This document shows positions 8,744 to 29,734 of a DNA stretch of 32,000 bases, one piece after another. Under the pieces are notes generated by a model that saw only the letters and a list, made by a program, of their open reading frames with translations, had not been told where the DNA came from and made no database searches. The position numbers and the translations under genes are program-made. The stretch is from Candidatus Pelagibacter ubique HTCC1062 (GTDB lineage Bacteria; Pseudomonadota; Alphaproteobacteria; Pelagibacterales; Pelagibacteraceae), in the NCBI RefSeq assembly GCF_000012345.1, contig NC_007205.1, forward strand, positions 60,001 to 92,000, given 5' to 3'. Each line of letters starts with the position of its first letter. The stretch's first letter is position 1.

Positions 8744-10495
8744 TTATTCGCTTGAAAGAATTCTCTCATACTCTCTAAAATTAAGCTCACCAGATGCAAT
8801 CATTCTTCTACCCATATCTTGCATCGTTCTAAATCCTTCCTTAATAGCTATTTCTCTTAATTCAGGAGTGGTTGCTTGTTTTAAAATAGCTTCTTTAATT
8901 GGTTTTGATACCACTAAGATTTCATAAATACCTTGTCGACCTTTGTATCCTGAGTCACTACATTTTGCACAACCTTTACCTTTGATGGCTTTTACTTTTG
9001 AAGCGTCTTCATCACTAAACCCCATATCTTTAAGAACCTTAGGATTAACATCATCATCAGGCACTCTACAATCTTTACAATTTTTTCTAGCTAGTCTTTG
9101 GGCTACAACAAGTTGGCAGGCAGCACTTATTAAATAATCTGGTGTTCCCATGTTTTGTAATCTAGTAATAGTACTTGGGGCATCATTAGTGTGTAGAGTA
9201 CTAAATACTAAGTGACCTGTAAGGGCAGCCTTTAATCCGATATCAACTGTTTCTTTATCCCTCATCTCACCAACTAGAATAATTTCAGGGTCTTGTCTTA
9301 AAAAAGATCTTAAAGCTTTAGCAAAAGTAAAACCGATATCATCTTTAATTTGTACTTGTCCTACACCATCTAATTCATATTCTACAGGATCTTCAGCTGT
9401 TAAAATATTTAAATGGGGCTTACTTACTTCTTTTAAAATACTATATAACGTTGTTGATTTCCCAGATCCTGTTGGTCCAGTTACCAAAATTAATCCCTGA
9501 CTACCGTGAATTCCTTTTCTTAGACTTTCTAAATCTTGCTTTTCAAAATTTAATTGTTCAAGGGTAATATCTCCTGCATCTTTGTTAAGAATACGCATAA
9601 CAATTCTCTCATTATTTGCAGTAGGTAAAATTGATAAACGTAAATCAACTACTTTATTGCCAATTTTAAAATTAATGGCTCCATCTTGTGGCAATCTTCT
9701 TTCTGCAATATCTAATTTACCCATAATTTTAAATCGAGTAACCACTGCTCCATAGTTGTCATGTAAAAACTGTCTATAGGTTTCTTGTTCTTGAAGCATA
9801 CCGTCTAATCGGTATCTTACTCTTGAACTAAATCGGTAAGGCTCAATATGAATATCACTGACACCCATTTTAATTGCATCTGCTACCACTGCCGTACTAA
9901 ATTTTATTACCTCTGACTCATTTTCAATTGCTTCAATATCTTCTTCTGGTTTATTGTCTAAAACTTCCCCTGCATCTCCTAAATCTGTTTCAAAAGTTTT
10001 TGTTTTTCTCCTATTCTCATTTCGAATTGACGCAATAGTTACTTCATCTGTTTCACTTGATAATCTTTCAATATATTCAGAAATATCACCTATTTTTGCA
10101 GCATGAAGTTCTATGTTTTTTTTTGTAATAGCTTTTAAATTTCGCATCAATCCCAATTTTGAACTATCTGGGATTGCCATGTGTAAAGTTTTTCCATCAA
10201 TTTTAAATGGTGCTACAAAATTCATCTTAATATAGTTTGATGGTAAAACTGTTTTTACTTCTTCAGTAATTTCAACTGACTTTAGATCAATTATTTCTAG
10301 ATTTTGTTCTTTAATTAATAAATCAATTATTTTTTTTTCATCAGTAAGCTTTAATTCAAATATTGCATCAATTTGAGATTTATTGTTTTCAGTGCTTACT
10401 TTTTTAATATCTATTAAATCTTTTCCAGAAATAATGTCATTATCAATTAAGACATTAACTAAATTAATTTCACTCTCTCTACTTATTTTAAACAT
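8744..10495 (-). CDS. pilB: Type IV pilus assembly (extension) ATPase, GspE/PilB family
   Basis: Walker A GPTGSGKSTT, Asp box and Walker B (ILVGEMRD), His box (GHLVFSTLHTND) and a C-terminal tetracysteine cluster (CKDC...CAKC). An N-terminal T2SSE_N-like domain is present. Confidence 0.9.
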   Translation of the reverse strand: MFKISRESEINLVNVLIDNDIISGKDLIDIKKVSTENNKSQIDAIFELKLTDEKKIIDLLIKEQNLEIIDLKSVEITEEVKTVLPSNYIKMNFVAPFKIDGKTLHMAIPDSSKLGLMRNLKAITKKNIELHAAKIGDISEYIERLSSETDEVTIASIRNENRRKTKTFETDLGDAGEVLDNKPEEDIEAIENESEVIKFSTAVVADAIKMGVSDIHIEPYRFSSRVRYRLDGMLQEQETYRQFLHDNYGAVVTRFKIMGKLDIAERRLPQDGAINFKIGNKVVDLRLSILPTANNERIVMRILNKDAGDITLEQLNFEKQDLESLRKGIHGSQGLILVTGPTGSGKSTTLYSILKEVSKPHLNILTAEDPVEYELDGVGQVQIKDDIGFTFAKALRSFLRQDPEIILVGEMRDKETVDIGLKAALTGHLVFSTLHTNDAPSTITRLQNMGTPDYLISAACQLVVAQRLARKNCKDCRVPDDDVNPKVLKDMGFSDEDASKVKAIKGKGCAKCSDSGYKGRQGIYEILVVSKPIKEAILKQATTPELREIAIKEGFRTMQDMGRRMIASGELNFREYERILSSE

Positions 10496-12051
10496 TATAA
10501 AATTCTTGGAGCGATAAATACCAATAACTCGTTCATTGTATCAGAATTTGATTTTCCACTAAGTACTTTTCCTAGAATTGGTACTTTTGACGTTCCTGGA
10601 ACACCTTGTCTATTATTCGCTACGTTATTTTTTTTAATACCACCAATTACAACTATATCCCCATCAGCTACTAATAATTTTGTATTTATCTCCATTTTAT
10701 TTACACCTACTGATGCTGCATTTGCTCTATTTGGAGTATCATTGTTTACTTGAATTGAAAGCATAACGTTTCCATCACCTATGATATTAGGAGTAACTAT
10801 CAGTTTTAATGATGCATCAACTGGTTTATCTTCCCCTTCTCCACCATCAATATAAATTGTTTCACCCTGATTAATACTTGCTTGTTGATTATCTAATGTA
10901 AATAATTTTGGATTAGATACTGTTTTTGATAAGCCTTGAGCTTCTAAAAAATCAAGTTCAAGTTTTAAAACAGCAGAACCTGTTTTTTTCAATATTCCAA
11001 TTCCACTTGTTGCAGCAGCTGACCCAAAATTTACTAAATTATCTGTTCCAGCACCGCTTGTAAAAGCACCTGTTGAATCAGATAATGCAGCCCCTGAACC
11101 AGATGCAGCTCCTACACTACTACCTCCTTGTGTACCACCCATTCTTAAACTTTTTCTTGTATAAGCGGCTCCAAGTCTTTTTCCTAAACTTTGCTCAAAT
11201 GTTGAAGTAGCTTCAACTATAAAAGCTTCTATTAAAACCTGTTTTGTTCTTTTATCAATTTCTCGAATAACTTTATCAACGATATCTAAATCTTTCTCTT
11301 TACCTCTAACAATAATTGATCTTGTGGTTGCTTCTTCCGTTACTTGTATTGGTATAAAATTTCCATTCGTTCCAACAGTTGTAAATAATTCTGTGATTGT
11401 GGCTTTAGCTTCTGATGGAGTTATATAATAAAGTCTAAAAATTTCTGAAATAATTGGTTCTACTGAATCTTCTAATTCAACTTTTTTCTTAACTGCTGAA
11501 GCTCTCGCTGATTTATAACCTTCTTGTGACGTTAGATTAGCAGGAGTAGAAACTCTAATAATATTACTTGCTACATCTATGTCTGCTGCATAATTTTTTA
11601 AATCTAATAATGCATTAAATGCTTTATCCCATGGAACATTATCTAACTCTGCACTTATTGATCCTGCCACATCGTCACCTACTAAAATATTAATTTGACC
11701 AACTTCAGACATTAATTTCATTGCTTCTTTAAAATCTAAAGCTTGAAATTTAAAAGAAACATTTTGTTTTAAAGATTTGAAATCTTCCGAAATTAATAAA
11801 TAATTTCTCTCTTTAACAGATGATATTTGTTTCCTTTTTTTAAGCTTTACGACATCACCTTCAGCAGGAGTTGGTCCCATTTCTACACTTTTTTCAACCT
11901 CTAGTTTTCCAGTTTTCTTGATATCAGTTTTTATTAGTGGGGTGTCGTGTTTAAAAGAACCAGTGTTTTTAGCAAATTTTTCAGCACAACCTGTTAAAAA
12001 AATAAATAAAAAAGGTAAAATTAAAAATGATATTCTTTTTTTAAATTTCAT
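10495..12051 (-). CDS. pilQ: Type IV pilus secretin with an N-terminal lipobox
   Basis: C-terminal secretin signature (VVIGGIKKNNVANNRQGVPGTSKVPILGKVLS...ELLVFIAPRIL) and N0/secretin_N-like repeats. The signal peptide ends in LTGC. Its stop shares one nucleotide (10495) with the pilB start. Confidence 0.85.
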   Translation of the reverse strand: MKFKKRISFLILPFLFIFLTGCAEKFAKNTGSFKHDTPLIKTDIKKTGKLEVEKSVEMGPTPAEGDVVKLKKRKQISSVKERNYLLISEDFKSLKQNVSFKFQALDFKEAMKLMSEVGQINILVGDDVAGSISAELDNVPWDKAFNALLDLKNYAADIDVASNIIRVSTPANLTSQEGYKSARASAVKKKVELEDSVEPIISEIFRLYYITPSEAKATITELFTTVGTNGNFIPIQVTEEATTRSIIVRGKEKDLDIVDKVIREIDKRTKQVLIEAFIVEATSTFEQSLGKRLGAAYTRKSLRMGGTQGGSSVGAASGSGAALSDSTGAFTSGAGTDNLVNFGSAAATSGIGILKKTGSAVLKLELDFLEAQGLSKTVSNPKLFTLDNQQASINQGETIYIDGGEGEDKPVDASLKLIVTPNIIGDGNVMLSIQVNNDTPNRANAASVGVNKMEINTKLLVADGDIVVIGGIKKNNVANNRQGVPGTSKVPILGKVLSGKSNSDTMNELLVFIAPRIL

Positions 12052-12053
12052 AA

Positions 12054-12560
12054 TTATTTTGTTCTTTCTGTAATTTTATTATTAAAATTTATCACTAAGA
12101 GAGAGTTTTCATTTTTTTCAAAAACTGCTTCTCTATTGTTAAGTCCAACTAATTTTACTCCAGGGCTTAATTCTTCAAACCTAGCTAAAGTAATTATATT
12201 TCCACTTGAATTAATTAAAGATACGAACCCATCATCATTTGCAGAGGTCATTATCCCAACTAATTTAAACTTATATAAGCTCATTTCATTTTGTGCCTCT
12301 TCTGGATTACTTGATAAAATTGTATTACCACCAGTTAATGAACTATCTCCAGCAAAAGGATCGTTTAATGGAAGAGGCTCTTCATCTTTAATTTCTGATG
12401 AAATATTCGATTGTGAATTTGCCTGTTTTTCTTTGATCTTTTTATTTATCTCTTTAGCTTTATCAATAATGTTTTGCTCTTTATCATGACTATCAGCCAT
12501 GGAAACTTTTGATAGCAACATAAAAAACACTGAAATAATGATTATTTTAAAAAAATTCAT
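12054..12560 (-). CDS. pilP: PilP-like pilus assembly protein
   Basis: Signal peptide, a low-complexity linker and a C-terminal beta-domain resembling PilP (YKFKLVGIMTSANDDGFVSLINSSGNIITLARFEELSPGVKLVGLNNREAVF). Its position between the pilO-like gene and pilQ fits. Confidence 0.55.
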   Translation of the reverse strand: MNFFKIIIISVFFMLLSKVSMADSHDKEQNIIDKAKEINKKIKEKQANSQSNISSEIKDEEPLPLNDPFAGDSSLTGGNTILSSNPEEAQNEMSLYKFKLVGIMTSANDDGFVSLINSSGNIITLARFEELSPGVKLVGLNNREAVFEKNENSLLVINFNNKITERTK

Positions 12561-13224
12561 TTGGTAACCCCACTATTGTTAACGTACCTTTTACTTTTAT
12601 CGCTCCAGTTGTATTCCCTTTTACCACCTGAATAGACTCTTTGTCAAAGTTTAACATTTTGTTAGAAAGCGATAGAGCTCTTTTAAATTTTATGTAACCA
12701 ATAAAATTACCATCAATTTCAAAATCAACAGGGATCAAATAATAGGCAATATTTGCAACATTTTTAACTTGGTTGTTTTTCTTTTTTTTCGTTTTTTTAC
12801 CGTCTGCTTGGGCTAAGGCTTGTGCTTTTAATACTTCTTGAATTACCTTTTTTTCAATTCTAGTGATTACTAGATCATTTTGTCCGGCATATTCACTTAA
12901 TGTTTGATAAAGACCCTCTACTTCAGCTTTAGAATGAAACAAGCTAGAGTATTTTTCATAATCAGGCTTAAGTTTTTTAATTCTTGCTCTCATTGAATAA
13001 ATTTCAGAAGTAAATTTTGCAGTTTCTTGTATTTTCAAATTCATGTCGTCCAATTTAGCTTTTCTAGACTCAACCATTGGATTTAAAATTGCGTAATAAA
13101 TTATTAAGAAAAAAACAATTGCACCAAAGATTATTCCTATTTTTATAAGAGTTTTTTTATCAGCTAATTTTGTAATCTGATCCTTGATATCAGACATGTT
13201 AATATTTTTTAAATCTATATCCAT
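12547..13224 (-). CDS. pilO: PilO-like bitopic pilus alignment protein
   Basis: One N-terminal TM (LIKIGIIFGAIVFFLIIYYAIL), then a coiled coil and a ferredoxin-like C-terminal region. The call rests on synteny between PilN and PilP, so it is mainly positional. Confidence 0.55.
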   Translation of the reverse strand: MDIDLKNINMSDIKDQITKLADKKTLIKIGIIFGAIVFFLIIYYAILNPMVESRKAKLDDMNLKIQETAKFTSEIYSMRARIKKLKPDYEKYSSLFHSKAEVEGLYQTLSEYAGQNDLVITRIEKKVIQEVLKAQALAQADGKKTKKKKNNQVKNVANIAYYLIPVDFEIDGNFIGYIKFKRALSLSNKMLNFDKESIQVVKGNTTGAIKVKGTLTIVGLPNEFF

Positions 13225-13226
13225 TG

Positions 13227-15770
13227 CTATATTTTACCTGTTTTAATTTTTACAAACACTCTAAAGCCTTTCATTGTAGCACCACCTGCTGTAGATTTTG
13301 GTAATCGCATTGATGATAAAGATGCTTGCTCAACCAATTTTTGATTTCCTAAATTTTCTATAAATTTCAATATATCTTGATCACTTGCAGCTATTCCTTG
13401 AATAGTTAATCTTCTAGATCCATTAAATTCAACTTGATCAAATTTTACACGGTTTGGAACACTTGAGGCTACTTGAGCTAAAATTCTATAAGTTAATTCT
13501 TTATTTGATTTAAGTGTTCTACTTAATTTTAAAGACGTATTAATTACACTAAGTTCTTTTGAAACTATTTTTTTCTGTTTAATAATTTTAGCATGATCTA
13601 TTTTTACAGTTTCATATTGTTTTAATTTTTTATTATAGGAAGCAATATTCCAAAAAGATAAACCAAATAATACCACATAAATTGCAACTACAGCAGCAGT
13701 AATACCCTTGAATGCAAAACCTGAAATTGCTTTCATCTTCTTTTGCTTCATTACATTTGATCTATCTGGAAGAAGATTTATATTTTTAACTGCAGTAACA
13801 AATTTATAATAACCAAAGACATCAAGTTTTCTAAAGGCTAAGCCAACAGAAGTAGATAGATAAGATCTATTTAACTTATTATCTAAAATTTGTTGATACT
13901 GACTTGGAATTTTTAATCCTTCAGTAGGATCAAAAGTGTTAAATCCAACATTCATTAAAATTTTTCTAAAACTTCCTAAATATTCGTCTACATTTTTGAT
14001 ATCTGAAACAACTTTTATGTTTCGAATTCTCTTTTCATATTTAGTCTCAAAATCTTGAATTGCTTGCTTAACTTGAGTAACATATCTTCTAACTAATCCT
14101 TCTTTTTCTTCAGTATCTTGAGAATCTTGTAAAATTTTTCTATCTTGCCCTCTAATAAAAATATCAGTTATTATTGGGTTATTATTATAGAGGATCATTA
14201 AATAATTTTCATCTAATCCAAATTCTAAAACAGCAGTTAAATTGGCATCCTCAGTTTTATTTGTTATTTGATTAACTTGATCAACTGATGACTTTAAAGC
14301 AAAACATTTAACATCTATGATTACAGGATTTAAACCTGCATTTTTAATTATTGAAGTATAACTATTTATATCTGTTAATTTTGATGCAACGAATAAAATA
14401 TCCATTGTATTTTCTTTATCATTTCTATTTATGACTTGATGAAAAATAGAATAATCTTCCAAACTATCTGTTAGTTGAACTAGGTTTTCCCACAATGAAT
14501 TAGTTTCGATTGCTTTATTTAATTCATCTTCTTTCATTAAAGGTGCGGTGACTACTCTTATGATTGCACTAGTTACCGGAATAGCAATTGCTGCATTTGG
14601 TGAAGTTATTTTGTATTTTTGAATTGCTAATACTAATTCTTCTGAAAATTTATCCGCATTATCAATTGGAGTACTATCATCTGTAATGTCGACGGGGTGA
14701 ATATGTAATTTTTCTAACACCCATTGATTAGCTTTGTTACTAGAAACTTGGACTATTCTTATTTCTTTATTTGCTAACTCAATACCAATTATTTCTTCGC
14801 CTTGAACACTAGATTTACCTAATTTGGATTTGAAAAAATTTTGTATTTTTGATTTATAATTTCCAACTTTAGAATTATTAAAAGATGATTTTTTTATATT
14901 TTTAGCAAAATCTGGTTTTTTAATTTTAATTTCCTTAATTTTTCCAAAAATATTTGATAATTTACTTTTTACCTGATCTTGGGTAGATATTTCTGAGTTT
15001 TCATTTAATGGAACACTTGAAGTTTGTGGTTGTGCTTCATTATTACTTTGATTGGTTGTTGAAATATCAATTTGTGAAGATTCACCCTCTTCTGGCTTAA
15101 TATTTTCTTCAATTTTTAATTTTTTACTTTCTTCATGAACATCATCAAACCATTTTTCCAAAATTGGTATTGCATCATCTAAATTTGTTGTTCCAGAAGA
15201 TGAAATTTTTTGTTTACCATCAATATAAAGTCTACCTACCCAGTTTCTTGATTTAAGTTCACCTTTATATTTATCTTGCCTTACATATATATGTAGTCTT
15301 CCATCTTTTTTATGAATTACCTCATGCTCTTTTTTTTGTTCCTCATTATTAGTATTTGATGCACTTACATTTTGCTCAACAGATTCATCTTGAGATTGTA
15401 AAGTTTCTGAATTTTCAGTTAAATTATCATTTTCATTGGATTTTTCTGATTCATTATTATCAGTTTCTTGAGGATTTAAAGTATCAGTTGAATCGTTTTC
15501 AGATTGGTTTTCCTGATCACTCTTTAAAGTCTCTTCATCATTATTAGTATTTGATGCACTTACATTTTGCTCAACAGATTCATCTTGAGATTGTAAAGTT
15601 TCTGAATTTTCAGTTAAATTATCATTTTCATTGGATTTTTCTGATTCATTATTATCAGTTTCTTGAGGATTTAAAGTATCAGTTGAATCGTTTTCAGATT
15701 GGTTTTCCTGATCACTCTTGAGAGTATCTTCCTCTTTATAATCAAATTTGTCTTTATTATCTTCGTCCAT
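13227..15770 (-). CDS. PilM-PilN fusion protein with a ~325-aa N-terminal extension
   Basis: Residues ~325-660 are PilM-like actin-fold (EIIGIELANKEIRIVQVS...). Residues 663-847 are PilN: the INLLPDR motif at about 13764-13790, a TM (ITAAVVAIYVVLFGLSFW) and a periplasmic domain. The N-terminal extension is acidic and Asn/Ser-rich with a duplicated 65-aa unit, followed by a Lys-rich block. Confidence 0.75.
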   Translation of the reverse strand: MDEDNKDKFDYKEEDTLKSDQENQSENDSTDTLNPQETDNNESEKSNENDNLTENSETLQSQDESVEQNVSASNTNNDEETLKSDQENQSENDSTDTLNPQETDNNESEKSNENDNLTENSETLQSQDESVEQNVSASNTNNEEQKKEHEVIHKKDGRLHIYVRQDKYKGELKSRNWVGRLYIDGKQKISSSGTTNLDDAIPILEKWFDDVHEESKKLKIEENIKPEEGESSQIDISTTNQSNNEAQPQTSSVPLNENSEISTQDQVKSKLSNIFGKIKEIKIKKPDFAKNIKKSSFNNSKVGNYKSKIQNFFKSKLGKSSVQGEEIIGIELANKEIRIVQVSSNKANQWVLEKLHIHPVDITDDSTPIDNADKFSEELVLAIQKYKITSPNAAIAIPVTSAIIRVVTAPLMKEDELNKAIETNSLWENLVQLTDSLEDYSIFHQVINRNDKENTMDILFVASKLTDINSYTSIIKNAGLNPVIIDVKCFALKSSVDQVNQITNKTEDANLTAVLEFGLDENYLMILYNNNPIITDIFIRGQDRKILQDSQDTEEKEGLVRRYVTQVKQAIQDFETKYEKRIRNIKVVSDIKNVDEYLGSFRKILMNVGFNTFDPTEGLKIPSQYQQILDNKLNRSYLSTSVGLAFRKLDVFGYYKFVTAVKNINLLPDRSNVMKQKKMKAISGFAFKGITAAVVAIYVVLFGLSFWNIASYNKKLKQYETVKIDHAKIIKQKKIVSKELSVINTSLKLSRTLKSNKELTYRILAQVASSVPNRVKFDQVEFNGSRRLTIQGIAASDQDILKFIENLGNQKLVEQASLSSMRLPKSTAGGATMKGFRVFVKIKTGKI
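15344..15733. repeat. Two-copy 195-bp in-frame tandem duplication inside the pilMN 5' region
   Basis: 15344-15524 is identical base for base to 15539-15719 (181 nt, hand-checked), giving a period of 195 nt or 65 codons. The unit encodes EETLKSDQENQSENDSTDTLNPQETDNNESEKSNENDNLTENSETLQSQDESVEQNVSASNTNN. Confidence 0.9.
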
Positions 15771-15834
15771 AAAACTTATAAATAAAAATTAATATTTAAA
15801 TTGTTAATTGATTCTCTAACACAAAATTAATAAA

Positions 15835-15845
15835 ATTCTAACACA
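15835..15845 (-). promoter_or_regulatory. Candidate extended -10 element (TGTGTTAGAAT read on the minus strand) for the pilMN operon
   Basis: The reverse complement of attctaacaca gives TG-T-TAGAAT, i.e. TGn plus a 5/6 match to TATAAT. It lies ~65 nt upstream of the pilMN ATG (15770). No good -35 sits at 17 nt; TTGAAC at 15862-15867 is 21 nt away. AT-rich context makes chance matches likely. Confidence 0.25.
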
Positions 15846-16138
15846 AGATTATAATCATTATGTTCAAAATGGGTTGAATTTAATAAGAAACTATAAAATA
15901 TTCAATTAAATCAACAGTTTATTAAAATCATTGAAAAAAATTAAATTTAAGATATTTTTTTCTAAATAATATTTTCTCTAACACATTTATCATAATTTTA
16001 TCTTTTTATATTGTGTTAGAAATTTAATATTTTTTTCTATTTTTAAAAAATAAGTAAAATAGCTATTTTTTATTAAAACAACTTTTAATTGTTTTTTGTG
16101 TGAGAGAAAATTTTTTTTGTGTGAGAGAAAAATTTATT

Positions 16139-16149
16139 TGTGTTATAAT
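16139..16149 (+). promoter_or_regulatory. Candidate extended -10 element TGTGTTATAAT on the plus strand
   Basis: Perfect TGnTATAAT within the duplicated context tttatttgtgttataatt. It points rightwards into the palindrome array, with no ORF downstream. Confidence 0.2.
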
Positions 16150-16167
16150 TTTTTTAATTTTTTTTGT

Positions 16168-16311
16168 TTAGAATTATTCTAATATATTTTTTTTTCCTAC
16201 ATTAGAAATATTCCAAACTATTTTTTTTCTCTTTAGAAAGATTCTAATATATTTTTATTTTACTTTAGAAAGATTCTAATATATTTTTTGCAAATTTTAG
16301 AATTATTCTAA
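16168..16311. repeat. Five-unit ~32-bp tandem array, each unit carrying the palindrome TTAGAA-N3-TTCTAA
   Basis: Palindromes lie at 16168-16182, 16202-16216 (TTCCAA, one mismatch), 16233-16247, 16265-16279 and 16297-16311. Spacings are 34, 31, 32 and 32 nt. Each is followed by a TATATTTTT-like tract. Confidence 0.85.
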
Positions 16312-16502
16312 TTTATAAAAAAAAAAAATTATTTTTTTTCTCTAACACAAAAATTTTATTCTAACACATTTAAAAAAAAAAAAAATTATTTCATTTTGTG
16401 TTAGAAAATTAACATAATATTCTTTTTTAAAAAAGTAAGCAAAATCAACGTTTTTAATATTATGAATATAAAACATAAAATGTGTTAGAGCTATATTTAT
16501 TT

Positions 16503-16513
16503 TGTGTTATAAT
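16503..16513 (+). promoter_or_regulatory. Candidate extended -10 element TGTGTTATAAT on the plus strand (second copy)
   Basis: Same 20-nt context as 16139 (tttattttgtgttataatt). It points toward the less AT-rich repeat segment 16690-17114 and would run antisense into the 3' end of the GAF::PP2C gene. Confidence 0.2.
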
Positions 16514-16586
16514 TATTAATATTATCATATTTTTAAAAAAGTCAATAAAATCAACATTTTTTATATTTTCAATAAATTTATTGATT

Positions 16587-16660
16587 TGTGTTAGAGATAA
16601 TTTTAATTTTTATCCTATGTGTTAGAAATAATTTATATTTTTTATGCTGTGTGTTAGAGA
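16587..16660. repeat. Three-unit ~32-bp tandem array starting with TGTGTTAGAR-ATAA
   Basis: Units start at 16587, 16618 and 16650 (spacings 31 and 32 nt): tgtgttagagataatttt..., tgtgttagaaataattta..., tgtgttagagataaatat... Confidence 0.8.
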
Positions 16661-28020: not shown

Positions 28021-28746
28021 TTATTGTTTAACCCAATCAGAATTTCTTGTATCCCATTTTTCAAGTATCACATTGCCAAATCTTGACCATTCAATAACAT
28101 ATAAATGATCATGCTCTGAAGCAGGTGTTCCATCGCTATCAACATCGCAACTTGATCGATCATTTGTTCTTCTGCAAATAAATAAAGTATTATCTATAGA
28201 TCTTGCTACATCCCCCTCTTCAGGCAAGGATGATTGTAATTTACCTGCGCCACTGTACCATTTCTCATTTTTACTAAAACAAATAGCTCCGTCATCCCCT
28301 TCCCAAGAAGTTGCCATATTATCATAAGTAATTTGTCTTACTTCAACATTATCAGCACCTTGATCTGGATCATCATCCCAATATGCATCGTCTGTTATAT
28401 TACATCGATCACCAATTTTTGCCCACCAGTCACTAGTTCCATCATTTAACAAACTTGCTAGTTTTTCTGGTTTCATTCCTTTTGATGTAACAATTAAATT
28501 TCTTTCTGCGCCATTCACTTCTTCTAATATATGTACTTGAACAAATGCATATTGACCTCTTTGAACTTGTGAATTTATTCCTTCGATTAAAGATTTTATG
28601 CTAAGTACTGCGCTTCTAGTCTCTCTATCTTTTCGCCATTCAGAAAAATTGGGATAACCTATGGCTGAGATGACGCCAATAAGTACAACGACAACAATTA
28701 ATTCAAGGACGTTAAATCCTTTAATCTTCTCGTCCTGCACTCGCAT
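28021..28746 (-). CDS. fimU: FimU/GspH-like minor pilin
   Basis: Prepilin motif KIKG|FNVLELIVVVVLIGVISAIGYPNF (Glu+5). It is the first of the minor-pilin series, and its start overlaps the pilT 3' end by 26 nt. Confidence 0.65.
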   Translation of the reverse strand: MRVQDEKIKGFNVLELIVVVVLIGVISAIGYPNFSEWRKDRETRSAVLSIKSLIEGINSQVQRGQYAFVQVHILEEVNGAERNLIVTSKGMKPEKLASLLNDGTSDWWAKIGDRCNITDDAYWDDDPDQGADNVEVRQITYDNMATSWEGDDGAICFSKNEKWYSGAGKLQSSLPEEGDVARSIDNTLFICRRTNDRSSCDVDSDGTPASEHDHLYVIEWSRFGNVILEKWDTRNSDWVKQ

Positions 28747-29734
28747 CTATCTTACCTGCCTTAACTAATTCTTCTAATGATTTAGTCATAGTAATCATAC
28801 CATCTCTCACAGAAGTTTGCATGATGCTAGGTATTTGATGAATTTTAGCCTCTCTAATTAAGTTTTGAATTGGAGGCGTACACTTCATCACTTCAAACGC
28901 TGCACAACGGCCTTGACCATCTTTTGTTTTAAGAAGTCTTTGAGTAACCACCATCTTTAAAGAAGAAGATATCTGTGCTCTTATTTGAGCTTGTTGCTCA
29001 GGTGGAAAAACGTCAATAATTCTATTGATGGTATTAGGAGCACCACTAGTGTGAAGTGTTCCAAAAACTAGGTGTCCTGTTTCAGCAGCAGTTAATGCAA
29101 GTGAAACTGTTTCTAAATCTCTCATCTCCCCAACTAGAATTACATCTGGGTCTTCTCTGAGTGCAGCTTTTAATGCACTAGAAAATGTTTTGGTTTGCTT
29201 TCCTACTTCTCGATGAGACACAATACTTTTTAAATCTTTATGAATAAATTCAACTGGATCTTCAACTGTAATAATATTTGAAGTTCTAGTTTTATTAATC
29301 TCATTTACAATTGCCGCAAGTGTTGTAGACTTACCAGACCCTGTTGGTCCAGTTACTAAAACTAATCCTTTATGCATATCGACAATATCATAAAGAACTT
29401 GGGGTAAATCAAATTGATCCATTTCAGGAATAACGCTCTCTACTCTTCTTAATACAGCAGCTGGTCCTTGAATAGTTTTATAAAAATTAGCTCTAAATCT
29501 TAATCCACTTAATGTAACTGATGAATCTAACTCATGAGTTTCACTAAACTTTTTCATTTCAGTTTCGTTACAATTAGTAGATATTAGATCTTGAAGATCT
29601 TGTTCTTTAACAACAATTTCTTGAATTTTGTGTATTTCTCCAGTTTGCCTAAACGCTAATGGCCAACCAGTTCTAATATGAAAATCTGAAATTTTTTTAT
29701 TATTTTTTGCTAATTCTTCTAATTTTTCAAACAT
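28721..29734 (-). CDS. pilT: Type IV pilus retraction ATPase
   Basis: 337 aa, the PilT size class lacking the PilB N-terminal domains. Walker A GPTGSGKSTT, ILVGEMRD and GHLVFGTLHTSGA are present. Confidence 0.9.
   Translation of the reverse strand: MFEKLEELAKNNKKISDFHIRTGWPLAFRQTGEIHKIQEIVVKEQDLQDLISTNCNETEMKKFSETHELDSSVTLSGLRFRANFYKTIQGPAAVLRRVESVIPEMDQFDLPQVLYDIVDMHKGLVLVTGPTGSGKSTTLAAIVNEINKTRTSNIITVEDPVEFIHKDLKSIVSHREVGKQTKTFSSALKAALREDPDVILVGEMRDLETVSLALTAAETGHLVFGTLHTSGAPNTINRIIDVFPPEQQAQIRAQISSSLKMVVTQRLLKTKDGQGRCAAFEVMKCTPPIQNLIREAKIHQIPSIMQTSVRDGMITMTKSLEELVKAGKIDASAGRED

Follow-up and report, generated by a model that had tools for sequence, protein, structure and literature searches.

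An integrase-type N-terminal domain on the PilM–PilN fusion protein of Candidatus Pelagibacter ubique and a candidate site array upstream of its gene

Why does a protein of the type IV pilus machine begin with a small domain that looks as if it had been borrowed from a DNA integrase? The question is raised by a locus of Candidatus Pelagibacter ubique HTCC1062, a SAR11 bacterium, within a stretch of 32,000 nucleotides (contig NC_007205.1, positions 60,001 to 92,000) that we refer to as the window and whose positions are counted from its first letter. The gene in question, here called pilMN, encodes a polypeptide of 847 residues on which the pilus proteins PilM and PilN are fused, and its modules are, from the N- to the C-terminus, an acidic repeat, the small basic domain, a linker, PilM, the motif INLLPDR, one transmembrane helix and PilN (Table 1). 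An earlier note on this DNA, made by eye from the sequence, had pointed to the fusion and to the unusual domain in front of it. On balance we favour the reading that the N-terminus of PilMN is an integrase arm-binding module that was domesticated and now binds an array of short sites upstream of the pil genes, probably for autoregulation. The case for DNA binding, for the identity of the target and for autoregulation is comparative, and it is built up below from the relatives of the domain, from the repeats that accompany these relatives and from the distribution of the array.

The relatives of the small domain were found among integrases. The peptide KKDGRLHIYVRQDKYKGELKSRNWVGRLYIDGKQKISSSGTTNLDDAIPILEKWF, read at 15141-15323, belongs to a domain that is single-copy in its own genome. 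In an order-wide search the domain matched the N-termini of open reading frames (ORFs) of 422-425 residues in three other SAR11 genomes, with expectation values (E) of 5.9e-21 to 2.2e-11 and 48-59% identity. These ORFs contain Phage_integrase (PF00589) and SAM-like domains, both of them preceded by the small domain, and they adjoin tRNA-Leu genes or tRNA-Leu 5' halves. A phmmer search of 1.84 billion representative proteins returned 128 clusters only, which consist of PilMN N-termini or fragments and of integrases of 411-436 residues that carry the domain at residues ~5-70. When the search was reversed and started from an integrase, ~105 integrases at 39-88% identity came first and PilMN followed. 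At the level of DNA, the part of pilMN that encodes the domain and the 5' ends of the integrase genes are 66-76% identical. A scan of the GTDB species genomes gave 220 loci, and among the matches listed 80 of 80 were from Pelagibacter or Pelagibacteraceae. Judged from these sequence comparisons, the small domain and the N-terminal domain of SAR11-specific tyrosine integrases that target tRNA-Leu are homologous. We label it an integrase N-terminal domain because of this direct homology and its position, and not because of a match to a solved arm-binding fold. An AlphaFold2 model of the domain, built from a 20-sequence alignment, has a beta-sheet and, after it, a helix at the C-terminal end (predicted local distance difference test score, pLDDT, 84).

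What the domain might recognise is suggested by the DNA in front of the integrase genes. In 12 of the 12 integrase loci examined, sets of repeats adjoin a core derived from tRNA-Leu. All 12 loci have two direct repeats of at least 7 nt at an offset of exactly 11 nt, located ~55-66 nt before the int start codon (~104-115 nt in locus L221), and as a control a repeat of at least 7 nt at this offset was found upstream of 12 of the 1,072 ORFs (1.1%) of the HTCC1062 genome. A half site follows near -40, and an inverted copy is located near -18 to -25 (near -70 in L221). The repeat, TCNNACAC, occurs in six variants (TCTTACAC, TCTGACAC, TCAAACAC, TCTAACAC, TTTGACAC and TCGTACAC), and in three integrase loci or classes the proximal inverted copy is TGTGTTAGA, which is the motif found upstream of pilMN. 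Five loci show a second set of repeats ~140 nt further upstream, across the core ACTCAAAA, so that the arrangement resembles that of a phage attachment site (attP). This core corresponds to the anticodon-loop region of tRNA-Leu. Six other loci show the 5' half of tRNA-Leu, the core and one set of repeats, as in an integrated junction. The int gene is often trailed by a gene for a serine resolvase. Taken as a pattern in the DNA, the layout of the repeat sets is that of arm-type sites, and we infer that the small domain reads the TCNNACAC repeats in the integrases. A shared 8-mer near two integrases, TTAGAGAA, was dropped as a candidate site, as it lies within coding sequence.

The same motif is concentrated in front of pilMN. 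Within the window TCTAACACA occurs in 11 exact copies compared to 0.33 expected, and all of them fall into the ~840 bp of the array. Genome-wide there are 21 exact copies; the array upstream of the pil genes is the sole cluster, and the other 10 copies, in 1.3 Mb, are about what is expected by chance. The array also has a polarity: on the coding strand the distal copies read TCTAACACA and the promoter-proximal copies read TGTGTTAGA, which is the same orientation as at the integrases. Two proximal sites are located at -53 and -75. No remnant of a tRNA-Leu gene or of an att core was found in the pil upstream region when it was searched for them. In the region of 16105-16147 and 16168-16311 the array also has degenerate sites (TCTCACACA twice and TATAACACA) and, between two of its blocks, a separate run of TTAGAAT..TTCTAA palindromes.

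In other genomes the array strictly accompanies the domain. All 16-17 pilMN loci with the domain have 4-11 copies of CTAACACA directly upstream, compared to none at 11 pilMN loci without the domain and none at three outgroup loci. A tree rooted with the outgroup has the form (A with domain, (B without, C with)), in which the clade without the domain is the sister of one clade that bears it. From this tree shape it follows that the domain was gained or lost at least twice, with the array following it in each case. The domain is also the most conserved segment of the protein: between clades A and C its identity is 82%, compared to 55% for PilM, 49% for the transmembrane segment, 38% for PilN, 25% for the linker and 0% for the acidic region. 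With dN/dS values of 0.04-0.12, and dS at ~1 or saturated, the codon comparison shows strong purifying selection on the small domain. Since synonymous sites are near saturation, the possibility that the domain passed recently from one pilMN clade to the other by horizontal transfer was rejected. The loci without the domain have a divergent pilT ~130-150 bp upstream of pilMN. In the window, a gene for a PilT-like ATPase at 28721-29734 (minus strand) is 85% identical to this divergent pilT and lies 13 kb from pilMN; therefore the locus has been rearranged in the lineages with domain and array.

Two single loci are of note here as observations of their own. In locus L032 (G133:C1:1188198-1192850) a separate ORF of 160 residues, just upstream of a pilMN of 559 residues, encodes the small domain, and a seven-copy motif array is kept; this might be a natural split or a frameshift. 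In locus L025 (G087:C1:975116-979396) pilMN has six in-frame stops (three TGA, one TAG and two TAA) in an otherwise complete genome, so that the gene is apparently a pseudogene, and the eight-copy upstream array is still there.

Combining these observations, the following mechanism might be proposed. In some Pelagibacter lineages, including HTCC1062, PilMN has gained an integrase N-terminal domain at its cytoplasmic N-terminus. This cytoplasmic domain, tethered to the membrane on a flexible linker of ~110 residues, would bind the upstream array of 15 sites, and binding to the array would most likely feed back on the transcription of the pilMNOPQ operon. Such a feedback would link the abundance or the assembly state of the pilus machine to its expression. 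A more specific version, which we offer tentatively and to which we give clearly less weight, is that the arm-binding domain and its arm-type sites were domesticated together, and that the PilMN ring, whether assembled or not, reads and controls its own locus or tethers it. As such it would be an assembly-coupled genetic feedback made from an attP-type module, and this in the bacterium that is the most abundant one in the sea.

Several results weigh against the proposed binding and regulation. The earlier note had likened the domain to the arm-type DNA-binding domain of P4-like integrases. This likeness was borne out as far as integrases are concerned, since the relatives are real SAR11 integrase N-termini accompanied by arm-like repeats, whereas the link to the P4-type domain or to any solved arm domain did not hold in profile and structure searches. 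The isolated domain gave nothing in a Pfam scan at E<=10, and Foldseek searches of its model against PDB and BFVD gave no match at E<=0.001, arm domains included. Comparison by hhalign with alignments that we made of family members was not significant either, with a probability of 1.9% for PF13356 and of 7.1% for PF20172; the register of these alignments is the one proposed in the earlier note, at this probability of 2-7%. With eight family members as queries, Pfam gave at best DUF6538 (PF20172) in one integrase (E 0.0084-0.027, below the cut-off), and sequence searches of PDB, with the single sequence as well as with a profile, gave chance matches only. Weak Foldseek matches to homing endonucleases and to the Mx8 integrase lie above E 0.001 and were not relied on. 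The pilMN loci with the domain fall into two clades only, so that their co-occurrence with the array represents few independent events. A scan of the pil upstream region for the sigma-70 consensus gave 14 sites compared to 15.1 expected, which is background, and no promoter was placed. Finally, the viral copies of the domain lie in gene-dense regions and have no site array near them, so that uses other than binding to a local operator are possible.

These viral copies are a form of the domain in its own right. Five viral contigs encode a protein of ~115 residues that consists of the small domain, a helical linker and a C-terminal transmembrane helix. The viral domain is ~80% identical to the integrase domain of the L033 class, and the protein is a tail-anchored, membrane-bound form without the recombinase part. 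When 50,697 deposited phage genomes were searched by tblastn with this small viral protein, no match was found. The viral copy may be a phage tool that acts on the pil array of the host, or it may be a truncated int. A metagenomic protein of 250 residues (P0354) has an N-terminus that is 76% identical to the integrase N-terminal domain and has PF13759 in place of the recombinase domain; it may represent another fusion partner or an assembly chimera.

Among the other explanations, one accepts that the domain binds the array and assigns no transcriptional role to it: the PilMN ring would instead tether the pil locus at the base of the pilus, on the inner membrane. Such a tether could help the machine to be inserted co-transcriptionally, place it relative to the nucleoid or act as a landing pad for recombination. 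The M. xanthus machine contains a roughly 12-fold ring of PilM. The 15 sites over 840 bp are far beyond what an operator needs and their number is similar to that of the subunits in this ring (structure 3jc8), and the long flexible linker would hold the domain on a membrane-anchored protein, all of which would suit a tether. However, the two proximal sites, -53 and -75, are where a repressor or an activator would be expected to act, similar sites stand immediately before the start codon of int in the integrase loci, and we found no support for a tethering function. We therefore regard it as unlikely that tethering is the purpose of the array.

The domain might also be what remains of an old integrase insertion, now either without a function or at work as a structural or protein-protein module, with the array bound by another factor or being a non-functional repeat. 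That neither fold nor profile searches linked it to a proven DNA-binding domain would agree with this, as would the phage homologues, which are fused to a transmembrane helix without a site array nearby, and genome G133, which encodes the domain as a separate ORF. A leftover, however, is hard to reconcile with the low dN/dS and the best-conserved segment of the protein, with an array and a domain that were always gained or lost together, and with a pil motif that belongs to the site family of the integrase att regions. This explanation, too, seems improbable to us.

A role of the domain in handling incoming DNA at the cytoplasmic base of the pilus during natural transformation, in line with the earlier note's idea of DNA uptake, is very unlikely. 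In its favour, the domain is joined to a platform protein of type IV pili, which drive DNA uptake in many bacteria. Against it, the motif is clustered at one locus upstream of pilMN and occurs outside of the pil region only 10 times in 1.3 Mb, about as expected by chance and not like a dispersed uptake sequence; the domain is cytoplasmic, arm-type domains read specific duplex sites, whereas DNA taken up in transformation passes through ComEC into the cytoplasm as a single strand; and sister lineages with the same pilus genes do not have the domain.

We now turn to the fusion itself. The ORF is uninterrupted and has the Pfam domains of both PilM and PilN on one polypeptide. The match to PilM_2 (PF11104) covers residues 329-533 with 69.3 bits (cut-off 27) and model positions 1-203 of 340 only, the NCBIfam family pilM (TIGR01175) scores 72.6 bits, under its cut-off of 133, and PilN (PF05137) matches residues 763-825 with 35.3 bits (cut-off 22.8). 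The motif INLLPDR begins ~15 residues past the end of the PilM fold, and the overlapping NINLLP (N346-P351 in alignment A3) is invariant across 21 sequences. In the monomer AlphaFold2 model the INLLP segment has a pLDDT below 50, so that there is no confident model of its docking in cis.

A search of PDB with the 21-sequence profile found M. xanthus PilM (3jc8, E 1.8e-20), PilM of P. aeruginosa and the chimera 5eou, as well as M. xanthus PilN (3jc8_N, E 0.0014), and no GspL was among the matches. In the AlphaFold2 model of residues 318-847 (pLDDT 74) an actin-like domain is connected by a long helix to a ferredoxin-like domain, and the PilN part is modelled as a long helix and, after it, a beta-beta-alpha-beta-beta unit. 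With this model Foldseek retrieved the PilM structures 5eou, 5eox, 2ych and 3jc8 at E 1.8e-20 to 2e-17 and template-modelling scores of 0.65-0.74, with 5eou at E 1.8e-20. FtsA followed near 1e-11, and EpsL/GspL ranked below both PilM and FtsA (5.6e-8 to 2.8e-6). No GspL family was found among the Pfam or NCBIfam matches of the 847-residue protein at E<=1. Membership of the GspL family was rejected on these grounds, namely the lack of a family match and the higher rank of PilM structures, and since the neighbours are PilO-like, PilQ and PilT and not gsp genes. Downstream of pilMN, and in the same orientation, are the PilO-like gene, a small gene and pilQ. Sequence and structural model agree that the protein is a PilM–PilN fusion with the architecture of GspL and is not a member of the GspL family.

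Of what the earlier note had said about this protein, the fusion with the INLLP peptide in cis was confirmed, and no frameshift or stop separates PilM from PilN. The INLLPDR motif is present, at 13761-13781 and not at about 13764-13790 as given there, and the gene, which the note ended at 15323, runs on to 15770. The likeness to GspL holds for the architecture and fails for family membership, where no GspL match was obtained in Pfam and the PilM folds are closer. A survey of relatives, which the note had called for, found fused ORFs in two families of the order. The acidic N-terminal region is itself a side observation: it contains a tandem duplication of 2 x 195 nt (2 x 65 residues; 15339-15739) with 97% identity, and it is unconserved across lineages (0-23% identity), with homologues of 748-847 residues in length.

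The fusion is widely distributed. In database searches with residues 145-847, over 7,400 proteins with lengths of 466-1482 residues matched, with both Pfam domains in 120 of 120 among the matches listed. When 151 genomes of the order were sampled, both families searched were found to have fused ORFs, with lengths of 559-853 residues, and frames of 544-587 residues with a PilN domain were also found elsewhere in the class. The fusion is thus not a sequencing artefact, because so many proteins match, because both domains are present in all of those listed and because fused ORFs occur in two families. On the evidence of these genomes, the PilM–PilN fusion is real and general in the Pelagibacterales. 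It is also already in print, as a 2026 preprint on Arctic Pelagibacterales labels 'the PilM-PilN fusion protein' in its drawing of the pilus locus. The small domain is rarer: pilMN with the domain was present in ~75 of the 401 genomes sampled in the order, and an integrase of the same domain family in about five.

Table 1. Positions of the features discussed (window coordinates, unless a locus is given)
Feature	Position	Strand	Basis or remark
pilMN gene, single 847-residue ORF with all modules	13227..15770	-	ORF reading; Pfam/NCBIfam; homologues
Acidic low-complexity N-terminal region, residues 1-145, net charge -38	15336..15770	-	sequence composition
Small basic domain, residues 150-212 (~63 residues), pI 9.3	15135..15323	-	homology to SAR11 tyrosine integrase N-termini
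Linker from small domain to PilM, residues 213-325 (~113 residues)	14796..15134	-	poorly conserved, 24-66% identity between lineages
PilM actin-like cytoplasmic domain, residues ~328-647	13830..14789	-	PF11104; PDB profile matches; AlphaFold2 and Foldseek
INLLPDR, PilN N-terminal PilM-binding motif, residues 664-670	13761..13781	-	sequence reading; alignment
Single transmembrane helix, residues ~684-707	13650..13721	-	hydropathy; long helix in AlphaFold2 model
PilN periplasmic coiled coil and ferredoxin-like domain	13230..13649	-	Pfam PilN at 13296-13484; 3jc8 PilN; AlphaFold2
Array of 15 TCTAACACA/TGTGTTAGA sites (11 exact, 4 with one mismatch)	15815..16658	.	-53 to -888 from the pilMN start codon, ~840 bp
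PilO-like gene, downstream	12547..13224	-	weak Pfam PilO match, E 0.0042, below cut-off
pilQ secretin, downstream, same orientation	10495..12051	-	Pfam/NCBIfam
SAR11 integrase loci	L220, L222, L223, L225, L226 (~330 nt upstream of int); L219, L221, L224, L033, L034, L188		
Viral copies of the small domain (IMG/VR)	L036:3983-4330; L038:1828-2178; L039; L040	+ (L036)	

Comparison with known systems helps to place the protein. With GspL/PulL/EpsL of the type II secretion system it shares a single chain that has a cytoplasmic actin-like domain, one transmembrane helix and a periplasmic ferredoxin-like domain; it differs in that it keeps the INLLP peptide, has pilO/P/Q neighbours and has a fold nearer to PilM. 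The separate PilM and PilN proteins of type IVa pili (P. aeruginosa 5eou/5eox, T. thermophilus 2ych and M. xanthus 3jc8) are its best matches in sequence and in structure, and they have in common with it the INLLP at the N-terminus of PilN and the downstream order of pilO-like, pilP-like and pilQ genes. In contrast to these proteins, the two are covalently joined here, as they are in the engineered crystallisation chimera 5eou (PilM:PilN(1-12)), and the N-terminus of PilMN is extended by ~325 residues, among them the integrase-type domain.

As to the domain, the SAR11 version stands at the extreme N-terminus of tyrosine integrases just as in lambda Int, Tn916 Int and the P4-type Arm-DNA-bind_3, and its short repeats flank the att core and adjoin int, as do the arm sites of heterobivalent integrases. 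The N-domains of lambda Int and Tn916 Int have a three-stranded beta-sheet and a helix; for the SAR11 domain a beta-sheet and a helix are predicted. In PilMN the domain takes the position that the arm-binding domain has in lambda-type integrases. It differs from the known arm-binding domains in that neither PF13356, PF20172 nor any solved arm domain matches it significantly, in that its family is confined to SAR11 and its viral contigs, and in that the pilMN copy comes without a recombinase. For the regulatory side, the closest likeness is to ToxR, TcpP and CadC, which are membrane-bound DNA binders, and to PutA, which is an enzyme as well as the repressor of its own operon. Like these autoregulators, PilMN would be a protein associated with the membrane that binds DNA close to its own gene and couples a membrane state to transcription. 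Unlike them, the module of PilMN appears to be derived from an integrase and is not of the winged-helix or ribbon-helix-helix type, it is fused to a pilus subunit, and its array is far larger. The nearest parallel for the reuse of such a domain might be the plant AP2 domains, for which an origin from the DNA-binding domains of integrases or endonucleases has been proposed.

In conclusion, the analysis defines a previously uncharacterised family of SAR11 integrases with the anticodon loop of tRNA-Leu as target and an arm-site code made of the TCNNACAC variants. This code would be useful for finding genomic islands in SAR11 and possibly for genetic tools. SAR11 bacteria have very few transcription factors, and their type IV pili are tied to surface contact, DNA uptake and phage entry. 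If the proposed reading of pilMN is true, a pilus platform protein that acts on its own upstream array would be a compact feedback device, and to our knowledge no type IV filament system has been described as having one. Bacteria would then also offer a clear example of an integrase whose arm-binding domain was reused, together with its sites, for the control of a host gene.

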